A DNA stretch of 61,115 bases, filler included. It is 6 parts of 6 records of this genome, joined end to end, with 100 filler letters (N's around TTAATTAATTAA, not from the genome) between each part and the next. Parts side by side here need not be neighbours in the genome. Positions count along the whole stretch, not along the records: positions 1 to 20,910 come from SRR15195285_604; 5 more parts are not named here. One strand, written 5' to 3'. The notes beneath the pieces were generated by a model. That model ran no database searches. It was not told the origin of the DNA and saw nothing but the letters and a program-made list of their open reading frames with translations. How positions within the stretch are numbered: position 1 is the stretch's first letter; the number at the start of each line of letters is the position of its first letter. Position numbers and translations under genes: made by a program. Positions 94 through 24,300 of this stretch are shown here, piece by piece.

Positions 94-3000
94 ATGTCCG
101 AGACGGGCGATGCGCAAGTGAACGCGCCGCGGGGAAACGAAGACGCAGTTGTGGAACTCGTAGCTAGCCTGCGTGCACGGGTGGCGTTTCTGGAGGGACA
201 GGTTCAGACAGGTGCAGCGCCCCCCGACAACCCGCCCGGCGAGTCGGATGCCATTGCTGTGGTGGGAAGTGGATGCCGATTTCCCGGCGCCTCTAGTCCC
301 GATGAGTTTTGGAAATTACTCTGTGAAGGCACAGACGCCATTTCGGAGATTCCGCCCGGTCGGTTTGACGTCGACGAGTATTTTGATACCGACGCTGCAA
401 CTCCAGGTACCATGAACGTGAGGGAAGGCGGATTCCTCTCGCAGCCGCTGGATCATTTCGACACAGCAGCGTTTAGTATAGCGCCGCGCGAAGCAAGGCA
501 TCTTGACCCCCAGCAACGGTAAGCCAGTGCCCCATTCTGACCACGATACCATCTTAACTCTCACGGCGACGTGCCGTTCGGCGCTGTTGCTCTCGTAGGT
601 TGCTTCTGGAGTGTGCGTGGGATGCTCTCGACGACGCCGGCGTTTCTTTTGGTGATCTGCGTGGATCATCAACAGGCGTATTTGTAGGATTGATGAACCA
701 TGATGACTTCATCCGGCAGCATGTGGTCGATGATCAAATTACACCATTCACTAACGCTGGCACTTGTATGTCTATTGCCGCGAATCGAGTCTCGTACCAT
801 TTTGATCTTCAGGGCGTGAGCCTTGCGACCGATACGGCTTGTTCGAGCTCTCTCGTGGCTATGCACCTCGCACGCACAGCGCTGCTCAGTCGAGAAGCTT
901 CTGCAGCGCTGTGTGGTGGCGTCAACGCGTTGCTACTGCCAGGGTTGTTTATTGCGCTCGCCAAACTGCGGATGCTCGCGGCAGACGGTCGATGCAAGAC
1001 ATTTGACGCGTCAGCAAACGGGTATGTGCGGAGTGAAGGCTGCGGTCTGGTAGTGTTGAAGCCACTTTCCGTCGCACGTCAGGCAACAGATCGATGTTAT
1101 GCAATTGTGCGTGGCAGTGCACTGAATTCTGATGGTCGATCGGCGATTCCAATCACGGCCCCGAGCATACAGAGCCAGAAGGCCAATTTGCTCAGCGCGT
1201 ACAAATGTGCCCAGATCGACCCCCAACTGGTGCAGTTTGTGGAAGCGCATGGTACAGGTACACAAAAGGGTGACTTTGCCGAGACAGCTGCGTTGGCTGA
1301 CGTGATGGGCGTTCGTAAACGGCCAGACAACCCGCTGTTCTTGGGGTCAGTGAAAACGAACATCGGCCACGCCGAGTCTGCAAGTGGCGTCGCCGGCTTC
1401 ATCAAAGCGATTCTTTGCCTGCACCACTCGCAGATTCCACAAAACCTTCATTTCCATGTGCCAAACCCAAACATAGATTTCACGGGACTCCGCGTTGTTG
1501 ATTGCCATGTGACCAATTGGCCGCGATGCAAGCACATTAGTCGTGAGTCGATGACCGTTGGAGTGAACTCCTTTGGCTTCGGCGGAACAAACGCACATGT
1601 TGTGGTGCAGGCAGCGCCGGCAGCAGCTCCAACTGCGGAAGACCGGGCTGCTCGGCAATCATCTACTTACTGCTTACCTTTGTCTGCCAGGACTGCAGCT
1701 AGTTTGATGAGATGTGCGGTTAACATGGCCAACTGCCTCGAGTCTCGAGATGTTGCTCCACTAGACGCGTGTTACACGGCCGCGCTGAGGAGGACGCAAC
1801 ACACTCATCGAATGGCAGTGATGGGTGAGACTCGGTTGGAACTGTGCACAGCGTTGAGAGATTACGTATCCAATCCAAATTCCCCGGGTTCAAGCCAGAG
1901 GAAGTGCGTTCGAGGTGTCGCAATCGAAACTACGCCACCACGACTGGCATTCGTGTTTAGTGGACAGGGCTCTCATTGGGCAGGTATGGGTGTCCGTCTT
2001 ATGGACACGTGTAAAGTATTTCAGTCAGAAATGTCTCGCGTTGACAGCTTGCTACAACCTCTGTGTGGATTTTCCATTGTTGACGAACTGCGACGTGGCA
2101 AAGCTGCTAGACTGACACAGCCCAACGTTGTACAACCGGCCATTTTTGCCATTCAGGTGGGTATCCTGGCTGTGTTAGACTCATGGGGCATCGTACCTGC
2201 TGCTGTGATCGGTCATAGTGTCGGTGAAGTTGCAGCCGCTTTCTGTGCTGGTGCTCTGACGTTGTCGCAGGCATGTAAACTGATTGCTGTGAGAAGCAGT
2301 CTCTGTCAGAGGGTTTGTAACTCTGGCGGAATGTTGGCAGCAAAGATTACTGCGGACCGTGCTGAGCAGGAATTGCGCAACGCAGATGCAGCAGGCGCTG
2401 AGATAGCTGCTTTCAACAGCCGAACTTCTGTTACGTACAGCGGCAGCACTGAGGAGATAGGATTGATGGAAACTGCCTTTGAGGCGCGATCCATTCCACA
2501 CAAACGCCTTGATGTTAGTGGGGCGTTTCACAGTCGATCTATGGATCCTATCAGATCGCAGTTGGAGGAACAGCTTCGTGATCTGGTCCCCACGTCTTGT
2601 CGTGTACCATTCCTTTCAACCGTAACAGTGGGCCCACTATCGGGAGAGAAGCTGAATGCAGCGTATTGGTGGAGTAACGTGCGACAGCCAGTTCACTTTC
2701 ACGATACAATCGCAGCAGCACGGAGCTCTGGGTGTGACGGGTTCTGTGAAATCGGGCCACACGGAATCTTGCAGAGATACTTGAAAGAAGAGCTTCCATC
2801 ACCGTGTTGGCACATGGCAACGCTCGTGAAACCAAACGACGACAGTGAAGTTGATCGAAATGACGGACTTGTGCACGTCTTGGCGCAGTTTTTTTGTCGT
2901 GGAGTCCATTGCCGTTGGCAAGGTATGTACCCACATGGGTCTGTCATCAGCTTGCCAACTTACCAGTTTGATCGGCAGCGATGCTATGTGGATTTGGTGC

Positions 3001-6000
3001 TGGCAGCTAGAGCAAAGAGATCAGTTCAGGAGCTCGATACCCAAGGGATGCTCAGCCTAGACGCGAGTGCTATGCATAAACAGACAGTTGTGGTGCAGGC
3101 TGCGCGAACAGGCTGGGTGCATGATCATATCTTGCAGTCCAAAATTGTCTTGCCTGGAACAGCGTACATTGAAATCGCTCTCGCGGCTGCAGACCAATTG
3201 TTTTCTAGCATTGCATCTGATCCACGTAAACCTGCTTTCTGCATAAGCAGTTTGAAATGGGTCTCGCCGCTTTTTCTTGATGCAACCGATGTAGCTTGCA
3301 TTGCTGTTGATGTGCAAAAATCATCATCAGGATCGCAATCGCTCAAGTGGAGTCTCGTAATGAGTGAGGCAAATGCTGCACAGCGTTCGGAGCCACGACA
3401 CCTGGCAAATGCAACACTGGACGCCGCACACTCTATTGAGTGGCCAGATCCTGTTCAAAACTTCCTTGAGCTGCAGAACAAGATGCCGGAGCAATCTGCA
3501 GCCACCGTGGCACTATCATCAGACGAAGTGTATCAACGTTTCGCAAAAATAGGCTTAGATTACACCGGCCTCTTTCGTGGAATCGACGAAATGTGGATCG
3601 ACGTTCAGTCGGGACAGTCGGTCGCCCGAATCTGCGCCGTTGGGTATAATAGCGACTCGTACACGTTTCACCCGGCACTGCTGGATTCAATCTTGCAGTC
3701 AATGTCCGGTGCGCTCGATCTTGGTGCTCCGTTGTTCCCTGTAGAAGTTGAGTCTATTAGACTACGGAGGGCGCTGGATGACCAGGAAATCTGGACGCAC
3801 ACTCAGCTGACACAGTCTCAAGACTCGTACGTAGTTGGGAATATCATTGCGTATGATAGTACCGGGCTTCCAGTGGTAGAGATTACTGGATTCAAGGTGC
3901 AGCTGCTGGACAGTCACGACACCCCCCCAACTGTGGCTTCGTTGATGTATTGCACACGTTGGTATTCGCAACCGTTGCCGGAACTCAGACTCACGGGAAA
4001 CGATCTCGGATGGATTATGTTTTTGCCACGCAATCCGCTCGTACCGCAGCTTGTCCAGGCCCTGCTGCATGAATTGCGCGTACGTGGACTGCTGTGTGGC
4101 ACAATCAGTTTGGGTGAGAAGTTTTCCCACAGCGGTGGCGAGTGGACTGTGAGACCTGATCATGGTGAAGACGTTGCGCAGGCCACATCTGAGTTGGAAG
4201 GTCAATTGCCATTCGTTGGCATCGTGAATTTGCTAGGATTAGAAACGCTTGTCGAACCGCTGCAAAATCCTGGCGCAATGGAACGCATCCAACGGGAGTT
4301 TTGCATGCCGCTGATCCATATGCACCAAAGCTATGCGGTACAATCGAAGAAGCGCGCAATTCTGACAGTAAAGTTTGGTGGACCTAATGCAAGTGAAGGT
4401 GTGAAGATCCTCTCGCTTGCGCAGTCGTTTGTAGATGGGATTGTGCGCACGAGCATGCTAGAGTCGACGAATGTGCTTTGTTACGCGGTTAGTCTTTCGA
4501 AGGGAAATGTGACGGAGGGAGACGCTCTTCTTCGAGAGCTGATGCGTTGTTCAAAGGAACTGCGCGGAGAACATTTGCATGAAAGCTCTTCGGACTTTGA
4601 GGTTGCGCTGGAAGACAACAAACGCATTGTGCCGCGAATAGAGCGTGAAAGTGAGCAGTCTGGTAAACTCCTGACACGTGGCCAACTTGTTGTACCAAAG
4701 CATACCTATGTGCTTGTCGGTGGTCTGGGCGGCCTGGGCATAATGGTTGCCGAATGGTTGCTGAAATTGGGCGCTGATTCTCTGGTGCTCACATCACGAC
4801 GTGGCGGTAGTACAAACGCTCTGGAGACGTTGGATAAGCTTCGCCAGTCATATCTTCACGCACAAATTCTGGTTATGTGCTCCGACGCATCGGACTATTC
4901 TGACCTTGTCAGTATGTTTGACGAGTGTAAAGAGTCGACACCTCCAATCAAGGGCGTCTTTCTCTGTACTATGCAACTTGCTGATGCACACATCGAGGCA
5001 CAGACGTTCAACACCGTTCGCTTGGCCATGGCTGCGAAGATGGATGCTGCTTGGAATTTGCATGCCGCTACCAAAGGTCTACAGCTCGACTTCTTCGTTC
5101 TGTTCTCTAGTGTTAGCGGTTTGATTGGCAATCGAGGTCAAGCAAATTACGCAGCCGGCAACACCTTTCTGGACGCACTGGCCCTTTTTCGCCACCGAGA
5201 AAATCTACCCGCGACCTCAATCAACTGGGGACCTGTCAGCGGCGCCGGGTACTTAGCCAAGGACCAGGATCGACTGCTTGCAAGCTTGAAGAAGCAGGGG
5301 ATGCGCCCTGTATCACTCGAAATGCTTCTGCAAGCTTTATCTCAAGTTGTAGACCAACAGCAGCTGGTGCAAGTGGCTTGCATTGACATAGATTGGTCGA
5401 CGTACTTGCGCAAGAACTACACTGGACGGACAAGAGCGATCATGCCCGCTCGCTTGGCGAGTATTGATCATCTCACAGCTGCGCTTACTCGCCCGCTTAT
5501 TCCGAAATCAAAACCAAACGACCTTGGGTCTGTTGAGGACCAACTCAGCACAATCGCGTCGCACATTTTAGGCATCGATTGCGAGTCGAGTGTGTCCGCT
5601 GACACCTCTCTAGTCAGCTATGGTCTAGATTCGTTGATGTCCAGTGAACTGCAACTCACAATTGAGTCCAACTGGAATGTCGTCATACCAATATCGAACA
5701 TTCTACAAGGCGCATCTATCAATGATCTCAGTAAGCTGATCAGTGATTGCAGCCATCCAAATTCCGTTGCGGGGCACTCAGCAAGCTTGGAGACAGATGA
5801 GGCACCTAGTACGGTGACGATAGACTCTATCGATGATAACTTCGGTCACGGATCGTTTACAATACCCAAGCCAGTGCAACCACCAAGACCAATCACGCGT
5901 GCTAGGAAGTTCGCGAACGTGATACCGTCTCCTAGTGAACTAACGCAACCCTTCGCCATGAATGATCTGCAGTTTGCGTATTATATCGGCCGGTCTGGGG

Positions 6001-9000
6001 CATTTGGCGCTGCTGTACCGTGCCATTTTTACTTTGAGTTCGACCGGGAGCACGACGACGAGTTAGACGTTGTGCAGCTTGAGAACGCATTTAACGTGCT
6101 GATTGCACGCCATGACGTATTGCGGTCGGTCGTTGTGGACGGCATGTTTGTCATCAAGAAGTCGGTTGCCGCCTATCGTTTTGATGTCGTACAGCTAGAA
6201 GAACACAATCATGAAATGTTGGAAAAATTGCGACGAAAGTACAGTCTCGAACAGTTTGATCCAGCACAATGGCCCTTGTTCAGCATTGCGATTACGAAAA
6301 CGCCGCGGTGCTCACGCATTCATGTGAACATTGACCACATTATCCTCGATATCAAGGCGACACTAACACTATTCGCAGAGTGGGCACATTGCTATTACTA
6401 TCCTAGCTCTAGTCTACCACACATTGGCTTCTCATATCGCGATTACAGCATCGCTACTGGGCAATACAAGTCCTCTGAGCATATCAATGGCGCCAGGGCA
6501 TACTGGATGGCTCGTCTAGATCAGCTTCCACCCGCTCCTCCGCTGCCGAAAAGCCCAACCAAGGCTTCGGCCGACGAACGGTCAGTTTTCACTCGACGAA
6601 CTGCACTTTTGAGTTCGGAGCAGTGGACCAAGCTCAAATCGTCTGCTGCACAATACAGTGCAACACCAGCTAGTGTCCTTTGTACCGCGTTTTGCCTTGT
6701 TCTGGCTCGCTGGTCTGCCACGTATAGTTTCACAATCAATGTCCCAGTCTTCAGCAAGTTGCCTGTGCACGATGACGTGGAGTCGGTACTGGGTGACTTC
6801 ACATCGTCAATTTTGTTGCAGTGTGATCTCGAGCTCGGTCATGAATTCAGGCAGTGCGTGCAAAAGGTACAGCACCAAATGTCTTGTGATTTGGATCATG
6901 TTGATTTCTCTGGTGTGGCCGTTTTGCGAGAGCTCTCACGCTTACCAATAGGAAGTGGGCAAGCTGTTAACACGTCAGACACAACTGCGTCCGGCAGCAT
7001 GGCAGGCATGCCTGTTGTTTTCACAAGCATCATCGATTCAAATGCAGGCGACTCTTATGGTTGGCTTGGTCGCAACGTGTACGGTATCAGCGAAACTCCT
7101 CAGGTGGAACTTGATGGGCATGTGTACACAATAGGCGATACATTGGCTGTTAACTTTGATTTTATTGCAGCAAGATACCCACCAGGAATGGTAGATGACA
7201 TGTTCGACTCATACATTCAGTTGCTGATGTCTTTGGCAACCGAAGAGTCGTCTTGGACTACCAAACAGCTGCAGATGCTTCCGCATGCTCAACAAGTAGA
7301 GCGTACAAATGCGAATATGATCCACACAAACGAACCACAGTACGAAATTGCACAGCCACAATCGTTAGTGTATGCAATTCTGCCTGCAATGGAAGCAAGT
7401 AAGTGGGGGTTGGCTGTGGTGTGTGGAACTGTGCAATTTACCTACGCTCAACTCCTCAGCACCGCCGTAGAATTAAGTTTAAGAGCGGAGCTTCGTGAGT
7501 TGCCACCACAGTCGACCGTGGCCATAGTAATGCACAAAGGGTGGGAGCAGATTGTCGCAGTGCTTGCAACCCTGCTGTTGGGTGCTGCGTACGTACCATT
7601 GGACGCAGCTTTGCCGCAGCGCAGGCTGTCTAAACTGCTTGCTCAGTGCAAAGCTAAAGCAGTTTTTGTACAGCAGACTGACGGCAGCAGCTGGTCCGTA
7701 CCGACTATCACTGTGGATACAGTTTGTGAACCAGCAACGTGGACCAGCGGTATGGACTGGATCAGTGTATGTCAAGAACAATTACCTCACTGGTCCAGCG
7801 TTCAGACGCACGATCTCGCATACGTGCTGTTTACCAGCGGGACGACTGGCGTTCCTAAAGGTGTGATGGTCGAACATGGGTCCGTTCTAAACACGGTGGG
7901 CTTCGTGAACACACGGTTCCAAGTCTCTTCTGCCGATGTATTTTTCGGGCTGAGCCAGCTTGGATTTGATCTATCGGTGTACGACATTTTCGGTAGTTGG
8001 GCTGCTGGTGCAACGCTAGTTCTGCCGCTCGAAAATCGGATGAAAGATCCAACGCACTGGATTTCACTTGTCGCTCAACACCGCGTTTCCATTTGGAATT
8101 CTGTGCCTGCTTTGATGGCATGGAAGCTTGACAGCATGGTGTGGCCGGACAAGAAATCAACGGCGTCCGGCGAATTATCCAGCCTAAGGCTGGTTTTACT
8201 ATCCGGTGATCGCATTCCAGCAGCTCTTCCTGTCCGGATTCGTACAGTCTTTAATGGTGCAACTGTGGTGAGCCTCGGAGGACCTACTGAGGATACGATC
8301 TGGGCAATCATATGCGAGGAGGTCGATCAGTTGTCCCCAGGTGGACTGATACCGTACGGTGTCCCTATCAGCGGTATGCACGCACATGTGATAGACACGA
8401 TGGGAAACGACTGCCCAGTGTGGACAGTAGGTGAAATATGTTTCACTGGCGTCGGGGTTGGTCGTGGATACTTCGAAGACCCGGAGCTGACAGCTGCGTC
8501 ATTTTCTGTGCATCCAGCGACGGGCGACAGAATGCACCGAACCGGAGACATTGGCCGATATTTACCTGGAGGCAAAATAGAGATCATAGGTCGAAACGAC
8601 TTTCAGGTAACTTTTCTTTCGTTCATTTTTCTTTCGTTAACTTTCCCTTCACTCATTTTCCTGTCACGTTCAGGTCAAGGTACGGGGTTTTCGGATCGAG
8701 CTAGAAGAGATCGAGACGGTAGCCCAAAGTGTGGATGGAATTCAGGACGTGGCCGTTGTGCCTATACGAGACGACAACACTAACCAGAACTACACTGGAC
8801 TCGTAATGTGTTACACAACGACCCCCGAACCTCCGAAGAAAACCACGATTGTCCGACAATCTGAATCGGAAGCCGTTGCCTTCAAATGTGCCAGACTAGG
8901 AGAGCGGCAGGGGTTGGGGTCTGCCATTGCGTTGACACGCGTTGCATCACTAGAGGCACAGAAGCTTGCCCAGGATCGTCGCACGTGGCGCATGTTTGCA

Positions 9001-12000
9001 TCCTCAGCACTACCGCGGGAGAATTTTGAATCTGACATTGTAGAATCACTTCGTGAGACCTGCGCCAGCAGTTCTGTGGAGATGAAATACTTGCTGTACG
9101 TCCGAGAGGGAGGAATATCAGGTGTCCCATCAGGCTTTTACCAGATCGGCAAGCAGTTTTCACTCAAAGCCGAGAGTACATCGGACACCTTTGAACAGCT
9201 ACCTGCAGACACGGTATTTGGGGAAAACGAGTCGATTTTCCGCACGTCAAGCGGAGCAATTTTCATGTTGCAGTCTGGCACTACATGTACGCCTGCGGCA
9301 CTAATCGAAGCCGGAAGAATTGGTCATCGGCTGATGCAAAGTGTGGCTTCAGAAGATGCTGCAACAGGATTCTGTCCGATTGGCGCGATCAATTCATCAG
9401 CTTTGTATGGGTGGTTGGCATCTGGTAACAAGTCCAGCACGGTTGTCCACACTATGTGCTTTGGGCCTGTCTTAGGCTCTGTTGGTAATTCTACGCCCAC
9501 GCACATGAAGCAGACGCGCGAACAGCAGTTGCGTGCTCGTCTTACGTCCGAGCTTCCGCAGTACATGGTTCCACGTTCATATTTCGAAGTAGATGCGATG
9601 CCACTTTCAAAGAACGGCAAAGTTGACCGCCGTGCACTCGAAATCTTGTACCACTCAGACAATAGAGAGCGACTTGCACATAATTCAGTCCAAGCTTCCT
9701 GTGGTGACTCATCTAGTGGTGATGTGAATGTATCGCCGGCAGAAACTGAGCTACTGGTCATCTGGAAGAATCGACTTAAAGGCGCAACGAACATCAACAC
9801 TAAAGATGACTTTCTGGCGTTGGGTGGAGACTCTCTTGTTGCTTTGCAAATGATCGTAGATGCTCGTGCTAAAGGATTGCAGTTCTCTGTAACAGATCTT
9901 TTTGCAGCACGTACCATTCAAAATATGGCACGGCTGGCAGCAGGGCAGCAGTATAATGCTGAAAGTGCTCAAAATTCCCGTGACAAGGCAATGGAAACAA
10001 AGGACATGTCGAGATTGCCACAGCTACTCGAGGATCCAGCGAAACGCCACGAGCCGTTTGGTTTGACGCCAGTTCAGCAGGCCTATTGGGTGGGCCGGCA
10101 TGAAGAGATGAACCTCGGCAATACATCAACGCATGGATATCTAGAGTGGAAAGTGACTAGTTTCAAGCTCGAGCGACTCCAGTCTGCTCTGGTGTCCCTC
10201 GTTGAAAGACACGAGATGCTGAGAGCCATCGTACGGCAAGATGGGTTGCAGCAAGTGTTGCCTGTGAGTCACAAGACCTACCCTGCTGTAAATGTGATCG
10301 ACTTGACTAAGCATCCTGAACAAGAAGCGGAGATGCGTCGAGTCCAGATACGCAACCGCCTGTCTCACGAGATCTTCGACCCGTCAAAATGGCCGCTGTT
10401 CTCGGTTTCTGCGATATCTGTCAGTGAGGTTGACTGTTATGTCGGCTTCAGCTACGATATGCTCGTGTTTGACGTGCGCAGCATCTTTATGTTTGTTGAT
10501 CAGCTGTTTTTGATCTACCATGGGCGAGAGCACGTATACACCAAGCCGAAAATCAGTTTTCGAGACTACACAGAAGCGCTTGAGCGCTGGAAATATGAGT
10601 CTAGCGACTATCACAACAGCATACAGTTCTGGCGGCAAACATTTGTGGAGCACCGTCCACGTGGTCCAGACTTACCGCTGGCATCAAGACCCGAAGACAT
10701 CGAGCAACCTCGGTTTCTACGCCAAGAATTGCGGTTCTCTGCAGCCGTGTGGTCAAGCTTTAGCGAAAGCGCCACCGAAAACGGACTGACCCCGTCGGCC
10801 GTTTTACTTTCTCTGTTCGGACTGGTCTTGCGACAATGGTGCAGTGACGAAAATCGTCCCTTCTGCATCAATGTGCCTGTGTCATCGAGGCTACCCCTTC
10901 ACGTGGACGTCGACCGCCTCATTGGAGACTTTACCACGACAATCTTCATCACTTTCCAAGGCAGCAGCACTTGCTTTCTTGAACAAGCTCGGGCTACTGC
11001 TGAGCAACTAATGGAGCGCATCGAGCATCGCCACGTATCTGGCGTAGAAGTTCTCCGGAGTCTGTCAACAGGCGATCCCTCTATCATGTCTGAGATGGCG
11101 GTACCTGTTGTTTTTACCTCTGCGTTGGACATAAGTGTTGAGGCTCATTCTGATATAGAATTTTCCTACGGTGTCTCACAGACGTCACAAGTCTGGCTTG
11201 ACTGCCAGGTATACACAGAGAATGATACCCTCATCATGAACTGGGATTATGTATCCGGCCTGTTTGCACCAGGACTAGTCGACACGATGGCTACATTGTT
11301 CTACGCAAGCGTAGGCAGATTGTCGGCCAGCTCATCATGGGACACGTTGAAGATTACAAGTGGTGTTGACATGCCAGATGGTGGTGACGACCTAGCGGCT
11401 GCAAACAATCATCAGCTTCTGCACTCAGCGTTTGTACAACACGCCTGTTCTCATGGCGAGCGTCCAGCTGTAGTTTCTGCAGAAACCGGAAGGATATTTT
11501 CTTACCGCCAGCTGCTTGATCAGGCAGTAGTGGTCCATAACTGGGTAGCACAGCACGTCTCCCACAAGGCGGAGCAAACCCGGCTTGTTGCTGTGGTAAC
11601 AAACAAAGGCTGGGAAGAGGTCGTTGCCGTTCTTGGTGTGCTATGTACCGGAGCTGCGTACATACCGATTTCGGCATCGCTTCCTCCAAATCGAATCAGG
11701 CAGCTTCTCGATTTGTGTGAAGCATCGTGTGTTTTAACGCACTCCGCAATTAAATCCTATCTGGGATTCTTGGATGCAATTGCTCCGACTCTGTGTGTTG
11801 ACGCCATCGATTACCCTGGCACCTCGACAAAAGCACATGACCAAATCATCGTATCTGGCGACGGAGGTTCTTTGGCTTACGTCATATTTACCAGTGGGTC
11901 CACCGGTGTGCCGAAAGGAGTAATGATTCAGCACTGTGCTGCACTAAATACAATTGACGAAATCAACCGCCGATTTGAGGTAGGTTCGGCTGACAGAGTT

Positions 12001-15000
12001 CTCGGGGTATCGTCGCTCAGCTTTGATTTGTCGGTTTGGGATATATTTGGAATTCTCAGTGTGGGTGGATGCCTCGTCATCCCATCAGCTGACTCTGTCA
12101 GAGATCCAGCACAATGGGTTGAGTGCATTCGAGCTCATGGCGTAACGATTTGGAACTCCGTACCACAGCTATTGAGCATGCTCGTTGAGCACGTTGGTGA
12201 CGCACGCGACGTAGCAGTCAACGGGCTATCATCGATGCGGCTGGCTCTTCTTAGCGGTGACTGGATCCCTGTTGGACTACCAACTGCATTCCGTGCAGTG
12301 ACATCTGATGCAACCAGTGTGATTTCTCTCGGTGGAGCCACTGAGGCCTCGATATGGTCGGTGATATTTCCGATTGATGAGGTGAAGCCAGAATGGGTTA
12401 GTATCCCTTATGGTAAAGCTCTGGCAAACCAGCGCATCTACTGCCTGAATGCAAATTTCGAGGTAACTTTGCCTTGGGTTCGTGGAGAACTATACCTCGC
12501 TGGGGTTGGCTTAGCCGTTGGCTACTGGAAAGCACCCGACCTAACAGCCACGCAATTCATTCTGCATCCAGAAACGGGCGAACGCCTCTACAGAACAGGC
12601 GACATGGGACGGCTCACAGACACAGGCGATATTGAATTTCTCGGGCGCGTTGACTCGCAAGTCAAGCTGTCGGGATATCGCGTCGAGCTTGGCGAGGTAG
12701 AAGTTGTTCTACAGAGCCACCCTCAGGTACAACATGCAGTTCCATTGGTGGTGGACATATCTTCGTCTCGGGCCTTGGTGGCCGCGGTTGTGCCTACTGG
12801 TTCTGTGGATGACACTTTTAACACACAGTTGTGCAACTTCGTCAAATCAAGGCTCCCTGATTACATGGTTCCTCGTGCGATCGTTACGATGGACTCTCTG
12901 CCACTCACCAAGAATGGCAAGGTCGATGGCAAGCAGCTTCACGTGCGGATGCACCATGCTATCGAAATGTCACCGGAGCAAGACTTACATGTTTCTCCAG
13001 GGCATGATGTGAAGCATCTCGCTGTATCTTTGGCCTTGGATCCTATTGTATCGAACATTGTGTCGATCTGGCAAGACGTCTTGAAAATTCCAGTGGAACC
13101 AAATTCCGATTTTTTTGTAGATCTTGAAGGGGCGTCTGCTGTGGCTATACAGCTCATCAACACTGTGAATGCTTGTCTGAACACGAAGATGGCTGTCGCC
13201 AAACTCTTCAGCCACCCAACTCCATTGCTCCAGGCCGAGCTCGTCAGGCAGGGAGGAGGTTGCGAATCAATCACACCCATCGTCGACCTTGCACCAAGTT
13301 CAACGGCTTCGCACCGTGTGTACTGTATACATCCTGCTGGGGGCAGTAGCATTTGCTATGCACGAGCTGCTCGAGCACTAGAAAATGATCTGCATCTGTT
13401 TGGTGTCGACGATCTGCATTCGGTGGCACAGCTTTCACAATCTGTTGACGGTTCAGCCGAAGATGTTGCATCACAGGAGGATGACATAGATTTGCATGCA
13501 GATGTGGAGAAAGAATTGTCCATCAAAGAACTGGCAAGACGCTACGCGCAGTTCATTGTCGAGCATGCCAAAGGGGAAGAGTTTGCTCTGGTTGGGTTCA
13601 GTTTCGGTGGGATCATTGCATGGGAGGTGGCATCACATTTAAATGAAGCTAGCAAGGTGGTCGGTATCAGCCTCATCGACACAGATGCTCAGGGCGAAAC
13701 GACAATGACCGACGAGGCAATTTTGGGCAATATCGTAGAGCATTATCGGCGCTCAACAGGGCAGAACGTTGAAACGCTCAATATGCCTTCAAATGCCACT
13801 CAGAATCAGGATGAGTTGTGCCAATTAGTTGCTGATCATATGGAAGAAGCAGGACTGTATCCACAAGGGATTGGGTTTAGCGCGCTGAAGCGGTTCTTAG
13901 CTCTATTTCGTCGGCACATCAGGATGATTGACGCCTACACATTCCCGAGCACGCTAGGAAGACGAGTTCCGGCAATATTTGTGTCGGGTTTAGATTCTAG
14001 CCGACAACAACGGGAGTTCTGGAATGGCCTCTGTACACATTCAGGAGGTTTACTGCACGCTGCTGTACCTGGTCATCACGATGAAATGCTGTCTGAGCTC
14101 CACTCAAGCACAACTGTTGGGTCTTGCGCACAATTCTTCCAGGGCAACCCTCTGCAGTTGACACAGTTGCAAGATGGCAAGAAAGCCCATCTCAAACAAG
14201 TGGTTGTAGAATGTCTCCAAGTTGATATCGATCCTCAACAGCTCTCCGAGGGTACAGACCTGTGGACACTCGGTGCCAACTCAGTATTCTACGTGAAGCT
14301 GCAGCGTCGTCTCAAGAAGGATCTAGGAGTAGATGTACGATTACCTGCTCTACTTGCGGCCCCACGACTGAGTGACTTGAGTGCAATTGTCATGCCACAT
14401 GTTGACACCCACGAAAGCAAACCTGGGGAAGCTGCTCAAAACCCCTCGTGCACGCCATTGCGTGAAGACTATTCGAATCCAGCTGAAGCAGCAGCAGGTC
14501 ACAGCTCCGTTGCAATTATTGGGATGTCTTGCCGGCTCCCAGGAGAAGCGAATTCACCCGAAGAATTCTGGAATAATTTAATCAATTCTGTCGATTGCAT
14601 CAGTAGATTCTCATCAAACAAGTCTGCAGATTCGAATTGGATAGGTGCCAGTGGCTTAGTTCACGGAACCTGGATGGACTGCTTTGACTGTGAACTATTC
14701 CAGATGACACGAAAGGAATCGTCAATATTGGATCCACAACACAGGCTGTTTCTAGAGCTGGTTTGGGAAGCATTAGAACAGTCTGGGATCCGTGAGCGTG
14801 AGAAAGCTGTTGGAGTTTGGTCTAGTTTTGCTCCTAACACCTACCTACAGGCGTTGTTGAAGCAACACGCGGTAGCTGAGCCAACCGGCACAGCAGATAT
14901 GCTGCAGTTACTTCTCGGTAATGAGCGCGACTACGCATCTGCACGACTTTCGTACCTATTGGATTTACGTGGGCCTAGCATGAACGTCCAGACTGCGTGT

Positions 15001-18000
15001 TCTAGCAGCTTGGTTGCGATGCATCTGGCGCGCGAAAGCCTCAACCGTGGAGATTGTGCTGCTGCGGTTGTTGGTGCCGTATCTCTTGCCTTTCCGATGC
15101 GACGAGGCTACACATGGGAACAGGGGGGGATTTTTTCACAGCGTGGTCGATGTGCCGCGTTCGATGTCTCTGCTGATGGTACGGTCCCAGGATTTGGTGG
15201 TGCAAGCGTGATAATGCAACCAATCGGAACTATAGATGCGCAATCCAACCACTATGCTGTGCGTGCTGTGCTGCGTGGCGGTGCAGTGAATCACGATGGT
15301 CGCCGGAAACCTGGCTTCACGGCACCCTCAATGCAGGCTCAATTTGAAGTGCTGCGCGCGGCGTTCATCTCTGCCGAACGAAGCCCGTCCACTCTTGGCA
15401 TGATTGAAGCTCATGGAACCGGTACTGTACTCGGGGACCCGATTGAAGGCACAGCACTTTTGCAGTTGCTTGCATCCGCAACGGATGCTCGTGCGTCGAA
15501 TATGCCTGTAGCCCTGGGCTCTGTAAAAAGCAACATCGGGCATCTCGATGCTGCTGCAGGGCTTGCTGGAGTTGTCAAGGTCGTGTTGGCATTGGAACAT
15601 TCCAAAATACCGCCCACACTTCATGTCTCGCAACCAAATCCTGCGATTCCATGGGGCTCACACCTGGCACCTGTGACGCAGGCCCAAGAATGGCCTGGCC
15701 TCCAGTCAACTGCTGGCGTAAGTTCGTTTGGCATGAGCGGCACCAATGCACATATCGTACTACAGCAGCCGCAGAAGAGTGTCTTGGATGATGCGACACA
15801 AGCTCCAGAGGCTGTTGGCCAGCCTTCCCTACTGACGTTGTCTGCAGCATCAGAAAGGTCGCTTCAAAGTTCCGTCGAGAACTTGCGCAGCTGGGCCAAA
15901 GATCACCCAGATTGCACACTTGCAAACGTAGCGTTGACATTGCACCGTCGCCATGAACACCGGCTCGGTTACCAGGCAACTGCCGTGGCACACTCTAACG
16001 TTCGCGCGATATCCAGCACCGACTTCATCGTGCACCAGTCGGGTGATGTAGACGTGGTGTTTCTGATTCCCGGCCAAGGGGTTCAGTCGCTGGAGCATGT
16101 TGCATCTATGTACTCGTACCACGCAGGCTTTCGCTTGCAAGTCCAAGAATGCTGTGATCTACTGTGTGCACAGGACGAGTGGCAAGCTGTTGGCACTTCT
16201 GTACTACGCGCTATTGCGAGTGGGCGCAGTATTAGTCTCACTGGCCAGGCTGAGCAGCAGGCCTGCGTCTTTGTGGTCAACTACGCAATGTCACAGGTCT
16301 GGATACAGACTGGAGTGACTCCGAGGTGCGTTTGCGGGCACTCTCTGGGTGACCTTGTTGCGTGCTGTATATCCGGCGCTGTAGAACTTAAGGATATGCT
16401 TCGACTAGTTGCCAAACGCGGGCAGCTAGTCGACTCGCTCGCAAGGACTGATGGGGGCATGTTAGCGGTGCGATGTACTGAGGACGTCTTGTGCGCTGAG
16501 CTTACAGAAGCCCGCTGCAGCGGCAAACTTGTGCTGGCAGCAGTCAACCAACAGAACCAGCTCGTTGTGGCAGGGCTGGGTGAGGACGTTGCTCGATTTG
16601 AGTCTCATATGAAAAACCGTGGGATTGCAGCACACCGACTTCCAGTGCAGCATGCGTTTCACACCCTGGCAATGGAGGCAGCATCAAGAGAGCTCAAGCA
16701 GCTTTTCGCGAACATCAACGAACAACCACAGGAGGCTAAGAGCGATGGTGTTGTGCACATATCGACGGTTACAGGTCAGCGACTCCAGGAACAACCGACA
16801 GCGGAATATTTCGCGCAGCAGCTCGTGCTCCCAGTCCAGTTCTGTGCTGCTGTTGAATCGGCAATATGCCACGGACCAAGCTCTGTGGAAGGTGCAGGTG
16901 CCACCACACACCGAGTACTGCTAGAAGTAGGGCCGTCAACTACGTTGACATCGATTGTGGCGGGTTTGGGGACAGGCCTATCATCATTCCCTCACCACAG
17001 CCGTTCGCAAATGGATGGATATTCTCACTGGCTACACACTTGTGGCATTTTGTGGAGCCTTGGTGTGCCGGTGCAGCTTCCTGGACTTACATCCCCTGAT
17101 GAGGCTACTAAATATTTGTCAGGATTGCCGCCGTATGTGTTCGACCGCGAGCAGCTCACAGCTCCGAGCCAGCGAGCAATTGGCGAAAGTGGTTCGAACC
17201 CCAAGAAAGTTGACTCAACTGAAAACACCAAGGAGATGCTGAACAAACTTTTTCAGGACACGTTGGCGTGCAGTAGTCCTGTCGATGTCAACAGCAACTT
17301 TTTTACCCTTCGAGGCTCATCATTGGATGTCGTGCAACTTCTCAACGGAGTTAGGAGCACGCTCGGGGTGACTATCACCATGTCTCAGTTTTTGCAACAG
17401 CCGACAGTGCAGGGGCTTTACGATCTTGTGTCGAGTGGTGACCACACGCAGTCCAGCGACGATTCAAAACCCGTCAGTGGTACGGACACTACCCACAAGT
17501 TTGAATCATGGCACCCACTCAGCTTCAGTCAGGAGGCGATATATGCGATCGAACACATATATCCACGAAATGATGGTGTGTACAACCTTCCGTCTGCCTT
17601 CATTTTTCCAGTAGGGACGCTGACACAGGCACAGCTTTCTGACCATCTGGCTCGTCTGGTCGCTAAACACGATTCCCTGCGCGCTACATTTCGTTCCAAC
17701 AGTTCTGCAACGTCGACTAAGTACACACCATGTATGTCAGTCGCTGACACGTATGTAGTTGAAGTTGAACAAATCTCTATTCATCGAAACAGTCCTGGCG
17801 ACGAGAGTGACGACCAAGAAGCATTAGACAGGGAACTGCGGCGCTTCACCAACAAGCCCTTCGACCTGCGAGCAGGCCCTCTAATCCGAGCAGGTGTTGT
17901 ATCGCAAGTGGTCCTATCGAAAGTGGGTGCGGAAGTGACAGTGGCAGTTGTAGTGCTTCATCACCTTGTCTGTGATGGATTATCAGCTGGTGTTCTGCTG

Positions 18001-19002
18001 GGCAATCTAGCGCTAGACACGATTGATGCTGGCAAGGCTTTAGATCTTCCCGAACAGAGCTATGTGGAATTTGTGAAATGGGAGCGTCGATGGATTGAGA
18101 CGCGTGCAGCTGAGATCGCCTTGGAATACTGGCGGGGTGAACTAGCGAGGCTGCTATACAAGGAAAATGCGATGGTTTTATCTTTGCAGTCAACGATACC
18201 AGCTGACCCAGACCGTGCCAACAGAGCTGATGCATCCCAGCGCAGACTAGCCATCGGCAGAGAACGGAGCTTCGGTGGTGGTTCTGTGGCGATCACATTG
18301 AGCAAGGACACGGTGCAAAACCTCAGAAAAGTTGCAAGTCAGTTCGGTGTTACGTTGACAGTAGTTTTGATGGGGCTATACGCTTGCTCTTTGTGGAAAT
18401 GTGCAGCTCGTAGCAACAATCCAAAACTGATCCCCATAGGCGTGCCCGTGGCGAATCGACCCCATGGATTCCAGCGGTTGGTGGGTTGCTGCATGAACAT
18501 GGTGGTTCTCTGTTGTGATGTGAAGCCCGATGAGCTGCTGACCAAGTTCCTAATTAACATTCAGCAAAAGGTAGCCGCTGCGGTGGATCATTCCTATCCA
18601 TTCACCGAGTTGGTACGAAAACTCGCGCCACCCCGGGCAAGGGGTTACAATCCACTATATCAAGCGGTGTTCAACGTTCGACCCGCCGAACAGCGTCACC
18701 CAGCCACTACTAGCCCGCTGTTGGGTCCGCAGGTGCCTTACAGATTCGATTCTGATCGATCACAGAATGACATTGGCCTCCACTTAGTGGAACCAGCACA
18801 GCAAGAGTCTTCCACGGGGGCTGACGATGACTGCTGTAGCGGATATCTCGAGTACAATGACCAGATTCTCGATCGGTCAGAAGCGACTGATCTCGCCCGA
18901 TCGTTCATTCGCTTAACAAATTACGTAGCTACTAGAAGTGCTGCCGACGAGGGATCGATGGCCACAATATTGTCGACGCTTGATGGTGCTTTCGGATCCT
19001 GA
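94..19002 (+). CDS. Hybrid type I PKS-NRPS megasynthetase, 3 exons (94-518, 599-8606, 8674-19002), ~6,253 aa: KS-AT-DH-KR-ACP-Cy-A[Ox]-PCP-Cy-A-PCP-TE-ACP-KS-AT-ACP-C
   Basis: Removing GT-AG introns 519-598 and 8607-8673 restores the conserved motifs DPQQR|LLLE (KS) and GRNDFQ|VKVRGFRIEL (A8) in frame. Motifs seen: KS1 DTACSSS/HGTGT/GHAE; AT1 GHSVG/GAFHS; DH HDHILQSKIVLP and HPALLD; KR GGLGGLG/NYAAGN; ACP GLDSL; Cy1 DHIILD; A1 TSGTTGVPKG; PCP GGDSL; Cy2 DMLVFD; A2 TSGSTGVPKG; TE HPAGG/GFSFG/GHHDEM; KS2 QTACSSS/HGTGT/GHLD; AT2 GHSLG/HAFH; C HHLVCDG. Confidence 0.93.
519..598 (+). other. Spliceosomal intron 1 of the PKS-NRPS (80 bp, phase 2)
   Basis: GTAAGC donor and TCGTAG acceptor; splicing gives CG+G = Arg in DPQQRLLLE. 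Confidence 0.93.
8607..8673 (+). other. Spliceosomal intron 2 of the PKS-NRPS (67 bp, phase 0)
   Basis: GTAACT donor, T-rich body, TTCAG acceptor; joins ORF 600.. to the frame of ORF 8731.. and restores the A8 motif. Confidence 0.93.
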
Positions 19003-19188
19003 CGCAAGTAGTTGAGTCATGACTGTGCATTTGGTCTAAACTTGTGCAAAATGCAGCCAGTGCCTCAGCATCTCTAGAGTTGGCCTTTGGTACGAATGTA
19101 TCGCATGCCTGTCAAGTGCCGTCTATATTCCCAGCACTTGACACAGACATACACCCACGCGCAAGCGGGGACAACGTTTCTGACTGCC

Positions 19189-20819
19189 TCACGCTGAACC
19201 TCCCACTAGGCAATGCAGCAGACGATGTGTGTCCGAAAGGCGGAAGCTATTCCGCAGCTCTGGACTAACACATGAATTCACAGCTTCGTCTGGCAACGAG
19301 CACTCTTGTAAAGATATACGCTGCTTTGCTGCAGTATCCATCAGAAGTTCGGTGATGTAACCTGCTTCGAGCATCATGAAGCTGAAGCTGTGCTCGCCGT
19401 ACAGAGGCTCAATAGCCGCGAGATCACCGATCAGAAAGAGATAGAATGCGCAAGCGTCATCACCTGTCGCACCAGCACACCCATCACAAGGTGCGCCCTG
19501 CATTTCCTCTTGCAACAGGTGCAGGGAGTGCGTTGATGGTTTGTAGCTGCGCATTCATATCCACAGCTGTCAGTGCCAATCACAGCGCACACAGAAGGGT
19601 ACAGACACACGTGGGTGACACTCACTAGTAGCATCCGCCGCTGAGACCTTCGATCGCGCCTTGGCGAATAGAAAAGTATACCTGTACGGGGTACAGACTG
19701 CCTGCGGATGCATAGCGATACTTCGGGAGCACATTGCCTTCGATATCGATACACATCAAGGCGTCACAGATGCCTGTAATCTGCTGGGTGGCAATAATGC
19801 TCGATGTTGCCCCTGGGTTGCCTTCGCGTGTGTCACGCACATTCGTCGTCGCACGGCTGGAGTTGCTCACAGCTTCCCATTCATGGCCCGTAGTGTCGAG
19901 GTACTGCTGCTTCAACGTTTGAAGATCACGAACAGACTCCGCGACAGTCTTTACGTCAGCTTTCCTGTCGCAGAAACCAGCAGGATCAGGAGAAGCACGA
20001 CAACCAGGTCACCAAATAATGCCCACAAGATCGGACGCACTCGAGTTTCTTGCTGCGAATGTCTGCCATCTTTGCAGCGATCGCTGCTGCAAGTTTGGTG
20101 GCATGGAGAATATCATCCTCGGATTCGTGGCTCTGCGTCTTGTGTGTTGCGGTGTACAGCGTGTAGCCGACAGCCCAACATGTACTTAGCTGCAGCAACG
20201 TGTCCACTGATGCTTCGGTGACCAGTCGCTGAATGTAGCGCTGCAATTCGTTGCCACGCGCAGCGATTCGCCCATCGGCGCCAGGCAACCATGGAAGAAT
20301 GATACCTTTGCCGGGAAATGGCAAATGCGGAGAATAGCTGGTCAACGATTGGCTCGCAAGAAGCTGGTCGTGTCGCCTGCGCAACTCGCTGTAACGCTCA
20401 GAGAACTGAACTGCGCCCGTAGATCTGCTTGCCACAGTAAACTTGTACTTGATGTGAGAATCTGCCTCAACGCCGGCTATCGTGTGCCCAGTGTACGTCA
20501 CGCTGAAACCTTCGTTGCTTGCAGCACCGTATGGACATTTGCACGGAACAGAGCTTGCTTTCGCTTCGCAGAGTTCTGAGCCAGGGACGCTCGCGACGAG
20601 ACCTGGTAGATGACGTTGCACCCGTTTGATGTGCCCTGGTAGAAATCCGAACTCTTTTGCCAGCTCCTCGGGCGTCAGGTCACAGAAGAGAACAAAATCG
20701 TACCCCTGACCGACAAGAGCCTTGGCATACATTTCCACCTGCGCAGCCGGCTTGATCCCCAAATGCTCCGCCAATAGGGTCTTGAAAAATTCGACGGTGC
20801 CGTCTTCATGCTCGAACAT
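19189..20819 (-). CDS. SAM-like + PX domain + SagB/ThcOx-type (NRPS Ox-like, nitroreductase fold) oxidase fusion; exons 20819-20041, 19964-19626, 19546-19189; ~491 aa
   Basis: Introns 20040-19965 (GTGCGT..GACAG) and 19625-19547 (GTGAGT..CTGAC..GCGCAG) join three ORFs in frame. Ox motifs: KYRYASAGSLYPVQVY, GGCYYYKPSTHSL (formed across the splice) and IEPLYG..MLEAGY. PX motifs: ERYSELRRRHDQL, LPFPGK, RGNELQRYIQRL. The N-terminal YAKALVGQGYD..DLTPEELAKEFG..GHIKR segment is SAM-like. The start lies near the contig end, so it is uncertain. Confidence 0.8.
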
Positions 20820-20910: not shown

Positions 20911-21010
20911 NNNNNNNNNNNNNNNNNNNNNNNNNNNNNNNNNNNNNNNNNNNNTTAATTAATTAANNNNNNNNNNNNNNNNNNNNNNNNNNNNNNNNNN
21001 NNNNNNNNNN
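20911..21010. other. Artificial contig linker (N44-TTAATTAATTAA-N44)
   Basis: Identical 100-bp spacer with six-frame stops; occurs five times in the window. Confidence 0.97.
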
Positions 21011-21329: not shown

Positions 21330-24300
21330 TCAGTGTGGACGTCTTCGACTGGCATCAATACCGAATTTGTTGAGTTCGATCTCAGGACGGGACCGGGTGC
21401 GGTTGGCACCTTCCACTAGTGTCAGATTTTCGGCTTCTAGCCATAGCAACAAGCCACGCCCTTGTGGCACATCAAATGTGTCAGTCACGCGCAAGCTCGT
21501 TCCGAGTTGAAACCCGTCTATGGGTGGAGCGTAGATCATTTTTGCAGCAAAACCGAGAGCCGCCCAGTCGATTTGCAGCGTGCATCCAACGTCAGCTTTT
21601 GCCCAAGAAGCCACACTGATGAGTGCCCGCTGAGCGTGCCGTAGGTACACTGTCGCCAATACATCTGAACAGTTTGTGCGTGCCGGGCATGACGCATTCC
21701 AGTATCCTAGCATTTCGCTGTCGACAATCCCAAATCGATCCCATACTTCCCAGATGGCGGTCTTGTTTGCGCCGTGCGCAGGGCCATACCTCCAAACCAT
21801 GCCGTACAGCATACCTCGCCATGCGTTGGCTGGATGCGACCCCCCCAGCATCTCACCCATCAAGCCGAATGGCAAGGCCGAGATCTCTACCAACCAGTAA
21901 TCATGAGGCGTGTCGTACGAGAAGCCTTCGCCGAACAATGCACGATCCAGGTACGGCATATGATCCAAAAATTGCAGTGCGGGTGAGACACATCCTCCCT
22001 CGCATGCCCAAGTTTTCGGGTGTGGACAAGAGACGCTGCCACGCTGCAATGTGGAGTCAGTACCATCCGGGAGCATGGAACATGCGTCTGCAAACCCGTT
22101 GCCACCATGCAGATCTGTCAATGCTTCGACAGACCGGTAGTCAGCGGCATCGTCCATCACCTTCCGTACTCGCTTCGCTGTTTTTCGATCAAACGCAATG
22201 CCATCAAGATAGCATCCATCAATCCACGGCCATGATGCCATCAAAGAGTTCACCCCTTCAACATAATAGTTGTTTAAACGGTGCTTGCTCTGCAAGCTGT
22301 TTCTAGCCGCGGCATCATTGGTGCATACGGCTGTGTCGAACGTATCGTTGCCGAGAGGTGTGTCCCAGCATGGGACGTATCCACTTCGCAAGTGCTCCTG
22401 CAACCAAGACATTCCACCAGGTCCATCAGGGCCTGGACGCGGTCGACTCATCGTTGCCCAGTCATCGATGACTTCAGCACCAAGAGAGCGCAGGGGCCAC
22501 ATGATGTCAACCCTTGTACTCAACTCGTTGTTGGTGTAGTACATCTTTACTCTCCCGCCAAGCCGGTGAATTTCCTCAGCAAACAGTGCGAGTGGGGCCA
22601 TTGACGTATTAGCTAGTGGCCAATTGATGTAGCGGTTGGTGCTGGCGCCCTGGTGAATATTGAAAGTTCGAATTCCAGCTGCCCACAGACCAGCAATGTA
22701 CTCCCTAATCTCCGGTAGAGTGGTCGGCACCCACATTCCTGCAATCTGCGCGTACCGCTGGCGAAACTGTGCCGCCGTATCAAGTGGTTGGCACGGCGTC
22801 AGCTGAAGCTCGAAGACAAAGCTTAGTCGAGCGTTCGGCACGAGAGTGTGACCTCCTGAGTACGTAGACAACAAGACCTGGTCGCCGTCTTCAGTCACGT
22901 TTATGCCACCATGAAACAGCGTCAGATTGTGTAAGAACTGACCAAACGCAGTGCGCGTAATATTTTCACGGATATCACCAGCCCAGCTATGTGGAACATC
23001 CACCGCATCATACACCTGGTACCCTGGCAAGGTCCACTCTGATCCGTCGCCGCGTAATTTGAGATGAAGCCCCTGATCAACATCGCCTATCCATAGCTGA
23101 TGGTTGGCCAGGCCGGTCCCCCCACCCATCGCTGGATTTTGGCCTCTAAGCTGCCCGACGCGGCTTGACCGATCAGCAGACCATGACCAGCTCCAGTTGC
23201 TTGGGCGGTATCCGCCGGGTTTGCTCAGACCCATGAAATACGGTACAGCAGCCTTTCGGAGCGGTATCTCAAGCCTGACGTCGTCAACTCTCATTTTCTG
23301 TGACCCTGTGTACAAGATGCTAATGTTGAACATCATATGGCCATCCGCCTCCATATGAGCAGCTGTCGAGACATCCAGCTCATTTGTCAGTGTGCTAATT
23401 GCACTTGTCCACGCGATCGAGTCTGCATTCTCGTCACCGATCTGCAGCTTTCCTGGTTTCATTTGCAGCCGCGTGTTGCCCCTGAGAATATGAAGTGAGA
23501 TGGGTCTGGTGAGCATACCACCGGTCCCCTCTATAGTCACCCTCTTGTGTCGAATCTGCGACGGTAGACCGTAGTCGTCAATAGTGACATCTGCGCCCCA
23601 TGTGGATATGCATTGGCGTGGTCGATCAAGCTGCAGGGCAGAAAAGCGCTTTGCTGGTCTTGAGTCCAAACCCAGTGTGCTATCCAGCCAGCGCAGTCGT
23701 GACATTTTGTCGCCATCTGAGGAGTCTCCTCGATCATGTAGAACTGCTGGACTTAGCTCCATTGAGAACGACAACGACATCTCCAACTCTTCAATGAATC
23801 TGCTGTCACTCACACCCGCTTCCTTCTCTATCAGGACAAACAGAGTGACGGAACCCTGATACGCTTGGGCGACGGTGTCCTTCGAAATGTCGACCGATAC
23901 CCACAACACGCCCACTTCGCCTTGTTTTACATCGATGGTGCGATTGAACGCATTGCCGTTGCTATCCACCCCACCTAGGTTGGGTGATGACAACCGTTCC
24001 TTTTCAATAACTCCTGCTTGCGCTCCATGCATATCGCTGAATTGAGCAGTAACACTCTGAATGTTGGCACGTGCAGCGTAAAGGCCGACCTGAAAGACGA
24101 AATACTCATTCTTCGATGCCGTGCCCAAATGCACAGTTTTGTTTTCCGAAGACGGGCCAGACAGAATCCACGAAAACGGCACCCGATCACGCATACGAAT
24201 GGTCCGCTCACGTGGCTCAGTGAACGCTAGCACAGCGTCTGCTGGGTGCTGAGCAAGCATGATCGCAACTTCGGACTCGGTCGCAACGCGCTCCATATCT

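Follow-up and report, generated by a model that had tools for sequence, protein, structure and literature searches.

A putative thiazoline oxidase divided between a megasynthase insert and a convergent gene in a eukaryotic contig

The stretch of DNA analysed here, which we call the window (61,115 nucleotides), carries on its first contig (positions 1–20,910, record SRR15195285_604) a hybrid polyketide synthase–nonribosomal peptide synthetase (PKS–NRPS) gene, the megasynthase, and a small gene convergent with it, the two stop codons being separated by 186 nt. Our analysis suggests that this locus encodes a thiazoline oxidase (Ox), a nitroreductase-fold pseudodimer that is divided between the two genes and would work as a heterodimer of an embedded flavin-binding half (F) and a separately encoded half (L); we give this reading a probability of roughly two in three. 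It is based on homology, the partition of motifs between the two pieces, their class membership, the conservation of each half and their adjacency on one contig. Because the megasynthase and the gene of the L half, including its PX-like upstream exon, both lie within 1–20,910, that adjacency is real.

The F half lies in the first adenylation domain (A1) of the megasynthase, between core motifs A8 and A9, at about 8830–9516 on the plus strand, and is supported by alignment, a motif table, an F-class hidden Markov model (HMM) and AlphaFold2 (AF2) modelling with Foldseek searches. This insert of 227 residues is a nitroreductase-fold Ox unit, and it sits, as Ox domains of the EpoB type do, between A8 and A9 of a Cys-type A domain downstream of a heterocyclisation (Cy) domain. 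The initial annotation, made from the letters of the window, had held that EpoB-type domains at this position bear all of the motifs; indeed, the Cy–A(Ox)–PCP protein P0003 carries the full set (RRSYRRF, KYSYPSGGGLYP, IEPLYG and GLCPLG) in one complete unit. We followed five motifs: RRSxRxF (M1), the KYxYxSAGxLYP loop (M2), PxYG (M3), GxCxIG (M4) and the Asn of NxxIF (M5), which corresponds to Asn236 of the stand-alone oxidase BmdC. The insert has M1 as RRTWRMF (8977–8997), M5 in GENESIF (9220–9240) and M4 as GFCPIG (9367–9384), with IEAGR at 9304–9318, and it is without M2 and M3: the alignment to P0003 and 25 other units shows deletions where the KYxYxSAGxLYP loop and the IxPxYG segment would be. 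The small protein has the reverse set, M2 (KYRYASAGSLYP) and M3 without M1, M5 and M4. All the motifs initially reported as kept in one piece or the other were found where they had been placed, and the reported absences were upheld by this alignment; M5, kept in the insert and lost from the small protein, adds a fifth motif to the picture.

The small gene, on the minus strand, consists of two exons (19964–19626 and 19546–19189) around a 79-nt GT–AG intron (19547–19625, GTGAGT...GCAG). Two open frames in different phases, 19628–20008 and 19192–19554, are thereby joined to read ...GGCY-Y-YKPSTH..., the junction codon restoring GGCY-Y-YKP. Exon A, which begins at an acceptor (cag followed by g), encodes an N-terminal wrapping segment, VRDTRE (19840–19823) at the degenerate RRSxRxF position, and KYRYASAGSLYPVQ (19723–19682). 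Exon B encodes IEPLYG (19413–19396), LEAGY (19371–19357) and SLQECS (19314–19297) and has its stop at 19191–19189; its C terminus, LHCLVGG, coincides with the end of the Ox fold. The location and motifs first assigned to a single convergent gene at 19189–19964 are thus retained, whereas that gene is in two exons with its YYYKP motif spanning the junction, and position 19964, taken initially as the gene boundary, is instead a splice acceptor.

The spliced small protein is homologous to the Ox unit of P0003 (phmmer E 7.7e-35, with 44–48% identity over the core), and complete EpoB-type Ox units are its nearest matches by BLAST. Opposite RRSYRRF of P0003 it has REGNPGA, in which the first Arg alone is kept, and opposite GLCPLG it has SLQECS; the positions of BmdC Arg146, Ser147 and Arg149 are occupied by E, G and P. 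Taken singly, each exon scores about 22 bits against TIGR03605 (cut-off 78.4) and matches BmdC at E 0.006–0.09, exon A aligning to BmdC residues 181–211. Embedded Ox units have a lead-in, LEFKLxxxG(I/L)R, to which the N-terminal segment of the small protein can be aligned, and this fits a role of that segment as wrapping element.

The same partition of motifs is found in bacterial NRPSs. A HMMER scan of 1.84 billion representatives with the insert returned 15 proteins at E ≤ 0.001, namely the window's own open reading frame (ORF), 13 relatives and P0013, which was dropped as a low-complexity match in 6 short stretches with unrelated Pfam hits. Ten of the 13 relatives are full-size NRPSs, and all ten have a tandem of two Ox units inserted in an A domain, which has the FDLSV[YF]D motif in 10/10 and a Cy motif upstream in 9/10. 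Across the 11 tandem pairs examined (one of two identical P0009 pairs was taken), L units have lost RRSxRxF, the Asn and GxCPIG while retaining KYxYPSAGxLYP, PxYG and LEAGY, whereas F units keep RRSxRxF, the Asn (9/12) and GxCPIG and have the KYxYPSAGxLYP and PxYG segments deleted. The Asn of M5 occurs in 5/5 complete units, 0/9 L units and 9/12 F units. Seven of the 11 pairs are fully reciprocal (those of P0006, P0009, P0012, P0015 and P0017 and two of P0016), one is nearly reciprocal (P0011), one is partially so, being divided differently (P0008), and two consist of two near-complete units (P0005 and P0007). Judged by these motifs, bacterial tandem Ox inserts carry the reciprocal L/F partition as a fixed arrangement in cis, and it is thus not unique to this locus.

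Several observations on the bacterial tandems stand beside this result. In P0006 the order of the units is F–L instead of L–F. In P0008, unit 1 keeps RKSYRNF, the loop and PLYG and is short at its C terminus, and unit 2 has only the Asn and GCCSIG. These sequences make it evident that rearrangement of the pseudodimer has happened more than once. One contig of a Cellvibrionaceae metagenome-assembled genome carries two NRPS loci about 25 kb apart, L001 (P0017) and L003 (P0015), each with an L–F tandem. A locus search with a four-row alignment yielded 10 loci, comprising these two tandem NRPSs and 8 single complete Ox units; there was no bacterial split case among the 10, the search pattern (GxCPIG) being unable to find one specifically. 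A single-sequence AF2 model of the L–F tandem at L001:9269–10561 had a predicted local distance difference test (pLDDT) score of 37.6, too low to interpret.

Class HMMs (L, F and complete), built from bacterial units only and with the window sequences left out, assign the two pieces to opposite classes. The spliced small protein scores 167.1 bits with the L HMM (E 2.5e-50), 143.4 with the complete HMM and 39.4 with the F HMM; the insert scores 97.5 bits with the F HMM (E 4.5e-29) and 49.2 with the complete HMM and has no hit with the L HMM. A six-frame HMM scan of the window found exactly one unit of each of these two classes and no third Ox unit, and no L-class match occurs anywhere in the 6111-residue spliced megasynthase. 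The reciprocal units of a pseudodimeric Ox are therefore both present, but on two polypeptides rather than one.

In a maximum-likelihood tree of 24 units, from which the fragments P0004 and P0010 and both P0008 units were left out, the insert falls inside a clade of 8 bacterial F units (support 95/98). The small protein groups with five L units (91/95), which have their cis partners in the insert's F clade. The insert has a branch length of 1.91, so its exact place within the F clade is unsure. Because the insert nests in the F clade and the small protein in this L subclade, we infer that the pair arose by fission of an older L–F tandem into two genes. Local duplication followed by reciprocal loss was rejected, each half nesting in a separate old bacterial clade. 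The initial annotation had proposed an obligate heterodimer with one composite site for flavin mononucleotide (FMN), produced by reciprocal motif loss, and the insert as its docking surface; the heterodimer and its site gain support from the bacterial cis partition (7/11) and from the mapping to BmdC described below, and the tree places the loss outside this locus.

Each half also has close relatives. Out of 8 candidates, seven are relatives of exon B (48–92% identity); six of them were aligned, the partial P0024 being left out, and agree fully in 43 columns, among them those of DLAAIEPLYG, LEAGY and THRxLH, and GxCxIG is present in none of the six. The ORF fragments of several of these relatives begin within the same intron, as M(R/H)SYKPSTH. 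For the insert, the 178-residue fragment P0004 is 57–64% identical to its C-terminal part and retains GFCPIG, A9 and A10. As the exon B relatives and P0004 keep the motifs of their respective classes, both halves are conserved in related organisms.

As a single sequence, the insert has no Pfam, NCBIfam or PDB match of its own, only its A-domain flanks being matched, and a word-indexed homologue search with it found nothing beyond the ORF of the window itself. With an F-type profile to which the insert contributes, BmdC is matched at E 4.3e-29. Modelled by AF2 on the F-type alignment, the insert has a pLDDT of 75.7 and a predicted template modelling score of 0.76, and in Foldseek the best matches of the model are three BmdC chains (E 1.9e-11 to 2.2e-10), followed by nitroreductases, McbC, AlbA and ThcOx, with 41 PDB matches at E ≤ 0.001.

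The BmdC structure offers an explanation of the partition. As described in PMC8795117, the FMN of BmdC sits between protomers, one of which contacts the phosphate with Arg145, Arg146 and Ser147, N1/O2 with Arg149, N3/O4 with Asn236 and N5 with Gly294, while the second contacts FMN through the backbone of residues 182–186; Tyr260 is the likely general base, and about 5777 Å2 of each protomer is buried in the dimer, in part by a wrapping loop at the N terminus. We tied these residues to the motifs by HMMER alignments (SEQRES numbering is that of the paper plus 2). Residues 145–149 correspond to RRSxR, 236 to the Asn of NxxIF, 294 to the last Gly of GxCxIG, 182–186 to xSAGG within KYxYxSAGxLYP and 260 to the Tyr of PxYG. 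By this correspondence with the published contacts, the F class keeps exactly the side-chain contacts of protomer one, and the L class keeps the loop of protomer two together with the Tyr. At the locus, the complete FMN set (RRSxR, Asn236 and Gly294 of GxCxIG) is present in the insert as RRTWR, GENESIF and GFCPIG and missing from the small protein (REGNP, no Asn, SLQECS), and the small protein alone combines the catalytic-Tyr PxYG with the xSAGx loop in one unit, both being deleted in the insert. As the Tyr and the protomer-two loop are retained together in the L class, the Tyr presumably acts across the interface.

On this mapping, the F half, which lies inside the Cys-type A1 of a Cy–A–PCP module, between A8 and A9, would hold FMN, with RRTxR at the phosphate and N1/O2, the Asn of NxxIF at N3/O4 and the Gly of GxCPIG at N5. 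The L half, supplied by the convergent gene and probably fused to a PX-domain N terminus, would restore what the F half has lost: its xSAGx loop would contact FMN as the second protomer does, and the Tyr of IEPLYG would be the general base. The L half would dock on its embedded F partner by way of the very large interface that is normal for Ox dimers, forming one composite FMN site and leaving the symmetry-related second site dead, and a methylthiazoline-type intermediate on PCP1 would be oxidised to the thiazole. A complex prediction with the insert, exon A and exon B as separate chains (the L half being entered as two on account of its intron) plus FMN, in which alignments were unused, gave 0.86, 0.85 and 0.85 in three runs; controls with the partner replaced gave 0.00 and 0.01, and with chain 3 replaced the value was still 0.68, so the prediction speaks neither for nor against binding.

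Upstream of exon A lies a further candidate exon (20041–20819, minus strand) with a weak PX-domain match; its start is 91 nt from the contig end, and unspliced it would form an ORF from 20819 to 19986. Exon A opens at a good acceptor (tttctgcgacag followed by g, 19965/19964), and a putative 76-nt intron (19965–20040, GTGCGT...GACAG) with its donor GA/GTGCGT at 20041/20040 would join the PX exon to exon A in frame. The joined reading of PX exon, exon A and exon B is a stop-free 491 residues. The upstream exon scores 19.5 bits against Pfam PX (E 0.0015), below the cut-off of 21.6 bits, and the Atlas gave a lead, and only a lead, to a eukaryotic PX cluster at 0.75. The ORF at 19986–20819 has a PX-like core (RYSEL...PFPGK...), again with a sub-threshold score. 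Given its splice sites and the fact that no in-frame ATG is there to start it, the small gene probably encodes the C-terminal domain of a PX-domain protein of about 491 residues and not a free-standing protein of 258 residues. No recognition-element (RRE) family was found in the L-half gene by Pfam, and the weak PX match in the upstream exon is there instead. If spliced to the L half, the PX-like exon would give an NRPS tailoring subunit a phosphoinositide-binding domain.

Several points weigh against the divided oxidase. The meeting of the two proteins, FMN binding and the oxidation itself are read from sequence and not from direct evidence. The protomer that gives Tyr260 to an FMN is not stated in the part of PMC8795117 available to us, so that the assignment made here derives from the partition, nor does the available part of PMC5108345, on ThcOx, state which protomer gives the catalytic residue. 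The insert could have lost flavin binding despite its kept motifs, given its long branch (1.91) and the lack of a single-sequence match in Pfam, NCBIfam or PDB. Exon A is open from 20008, and its first in-frame ATG is at residue 70, 11 residues before KYRY; expression of the L half would hinge on the splice to a PX exon that lies at the contig end and whose PX match is sub-threshold. No genome could be shown to contain relatives of both halves. Finally, the tandem proteins were fished with the F-type insert, and the proportion of 7/11 thus describes an enriched sample.

Some of these points would also suit a different account, in which both pieces are evolutionary leftovers and the product keeps its thiazoline. 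We regard this as unlikely. In its favour, neither piece has the full motif set, the small frame does not supply its own ATG, and the insert has diverged strongly and has no single-sequence family match; however, open frames are preserved on either side of a canonical intron, the retained motifs are invariant in the six aligned relatives down to 54% identity, and a relative of the insert retains GFCPIG. The losses, moreover, are exactly complementary and match those of functional cis pairs.

A second account leaves the halves unpaired: F inserts would homodimerise within a dimeric megasynthase and bind FMN, using another base or none, and the task of the L half would be a different one that does not involve flavin, such as scaffolding or regulation on PX-bound membranes. 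Both sites of such an F–F dimer would be without the second-protomer xSAGx loop and the catalytic Tyr, and, among the bacterial proteins examined, all eight full-size ones that bear F (P0006, P0008, P0009, P0011, P0012, P0015, P0016 and P0017) have a cis partner unit for F, which is an L unit, a nearly complete unit or, in P0008, a truncated one. We therefore consider F–F pairing improbable, even though every side-chain FMN contact is retained in the F half, PKS–NRPS hybrids dimerise through their KS domains and embedded Ox domains are thought to aid dimerisation (PMC8795117).

That the small gene is itself a complete, self-sufficient trans oxidase of the BmdC kind and the insert irrelevant is very improbable: both exons match BmdC and the small protein is nearest to complete EpoB-type units by BLAST, yet Arg146, Ser147 and Arg149 are replaced by E, G and P, Asn236 is absent, GxCxIG is SLQECS, and the L HMM outscores that of the complete type.

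The divided F–L oxidase resembles several known systems in part. The bacterial tandem Ox inserts of P0009, P0012, P0015 and P0017 share its A8–A9 site, its two classes, the reciprocal partition and the Cys-type module, but there both units lie on one polypeptide, as L–F (F–L in P0006), instead of in two genes. The single Ox unit of P0003 has the same insertion site and fold as the window's units; all motifs of the EpoB type are in one unit, and a symmetric two-site homodimer is expected, whereas neither unit of the window is complete. BmdC (PDB 7LY4–7LY7), which is the best structural match of the insert and the sole meaningful PDB sequence match of the small gene, is separately encoded like the L half and forms a stable complex with its NRPS module. 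It is, however, complete as a homodimer, has two FMN sites and an RRE-like N-domain, and docks on an ordinary A domain; the trans protein of the window is without FMN-binding residues, has a PX-like N terminus and would complete a half-unit embedded in an A domain.

More distant parallels come from outside the assembly line. In the cyclodipeptide oxidase AlbAB, as described in PMC11055893 (PDB 8UC3), a nitroreductase-fold subunit holds FMN and the other subunit adds a conserved Tyr over the flavin; AlbB alone is inactive and AlbA was not obtainable in soluble form. Like the proposed F–L pair, AlbAB is an obligate two-gene flavoenzyme, but by that account AlbB is a four-helix bundle and not a nitroreductase-fold paralogue, and AlbAB forms filaments and works off the assembly line. 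The azoline dehydrogenases McbC and ThcOx of ribosomally synthesized and post-translationally modified peptides have the fold and the chemistry proposed for the window's Ox and match at a distance (Foldseek E 2e-5 to 6e-4); unlike the window's halves, each is a complete unit, and its substrates are ribosomal peptides.

The megasynthase gene spans 1–19002 on the plus strand (more than 6100 codons), with an open 5′ end and at least two short introns; Pfam gives the order KS–AT–DH–KR–ACP, C–A–PCP, C–A–PCP, TE-like hydrolase, carrier, KS–AT–ACP and C, and the spliced frame from 599 to 18999 encodes 6111 residues without a stop. The first exon (1–518) encodes the N-terminal part of the KS (Pfam ketoacyl-synt positions 2–91) and ends in ...DPQQ(R) before a GTAAGC donor; removal of the 80-nt GT–AG intron at 519–598 restores DPQQR–LLLE, and the Pfam KS match resumes downstream at position 92. 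By Pfam and motif coordinates, the second exon (599–8606) comprises KS–AT–DH–KR–ACP, Cy1 and A1 through the first half of A8. A 67-nt GT–AG intron (8607–8673), absent from the initial picture of the gene, then splits A8 of A1, and its removal restores GRNDFQ–VKVRGFRIELEEIE, the second part, VKVRGFRIELEEIE, lying at 8674–8715. The exon that follows (8674–19002) encodes, again by Pfam and motifs, the rest of A1 with its Ox insert, PCP, Cy2, A2, PCP, the TE-like hydrolase, carrier, KS–AT–ACP and terminal C.

The module that contains the insert has the heterocyclisation signature DHIILD at 6333–6350, in the C domain before A1, and the Cys-type FDLSVYD at 7965–7985 in A1. A9 (LPQYMVP, 9553–9573), A10 (NGKVDRRAL, 9613–9639) and the PCP serine motif (GGDSL, 9823–9837) come after the Ox insert on the same strand, so A1 is otherwise intact. 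In the second Cy–A–PCP module (10000–13000, plus strand), Cy2 has DMLVFDVRS at 10456–10482 and A2 has FDLSVWD; the six-frame Ox HMM scan of the window found no Ox unit of any class there. The product may thus bear one thiazole and then a thiazoline, unless the F–L oxidase serves PCP2 too. The TE-like alpha/beta-hydrolase lies mid-chain, after PCP2 (Pfam Thioesterase, E 3.8e-10), and the terminal condensation domain carries HHLVCDG.

To judge from its 67–80-nt GT–AG introns, the host is a eukaryote. A bacterial window with frameshift errors was rejected as an explanation of the interrupted frames: the four breaks are all GT...AG and 67–80 nt long, and their removal restores conserved motifs. 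The window as a whole consists of six contigs joined by five identical artificial spacers of 100 nt (44 N, TTAATTAATTAA, 44 N, with stops in all six frames) at 20911–21010, 26458–26557, 33893–33992, 43481–43580 and 56911–57010; since these are artificial joiners, gene neighbourhood across them is not real. The other five contigs, from the same assembly, encode by Pfam EF-hand/cNMP, ion-channel, lectin, GH123 and further proteins. Two long intron-free ORFs lie on them, one for a 1409-residue GH123-family protein with an F5/8 type C domain (21330–25559, minus strand) and one of 2944 residues with C-type lectin and laminin-G-like domains (34194–43028, plus strand).

Embedded and trans-acting NRPS oxidases are known already, and pseudodimeric Ox inserts have been noted, that of the indigoidine synthetase IndC being described as a pseudodimer in PMC8795117. 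In the full-text literature, with subscription journals largely outside its scope, we found no account of a pseudodimer with its two non-redundant halves encoded by different genes. Tentatively, and with less confidence than in the pairing itself, this could be the first natural tailoring site of an assembly line formed from an embedded and a trans half, in which the PX fusion would tether or gate thiazole formation, perhaps the whole megasynthase, at a specific endomembrane of a marine protist. For annotation, the L/F partition yields a rule: a unit with RRSxR and GxCPIG and without the Tyr should be called a working Ox only where it has an L partner. Provided that the two halves do pair, the locus would be a natural minimal system for the division of labour in azoline dehydrogenases, flavin binding on one side and base and lid on the other, and a ready-made orthogonal docking pair for adding tailoring steps to assembly lines; it would also show a bacterial-type biosynthetic domain remodelled after settling in an intron-bearing eukaryotic genome.

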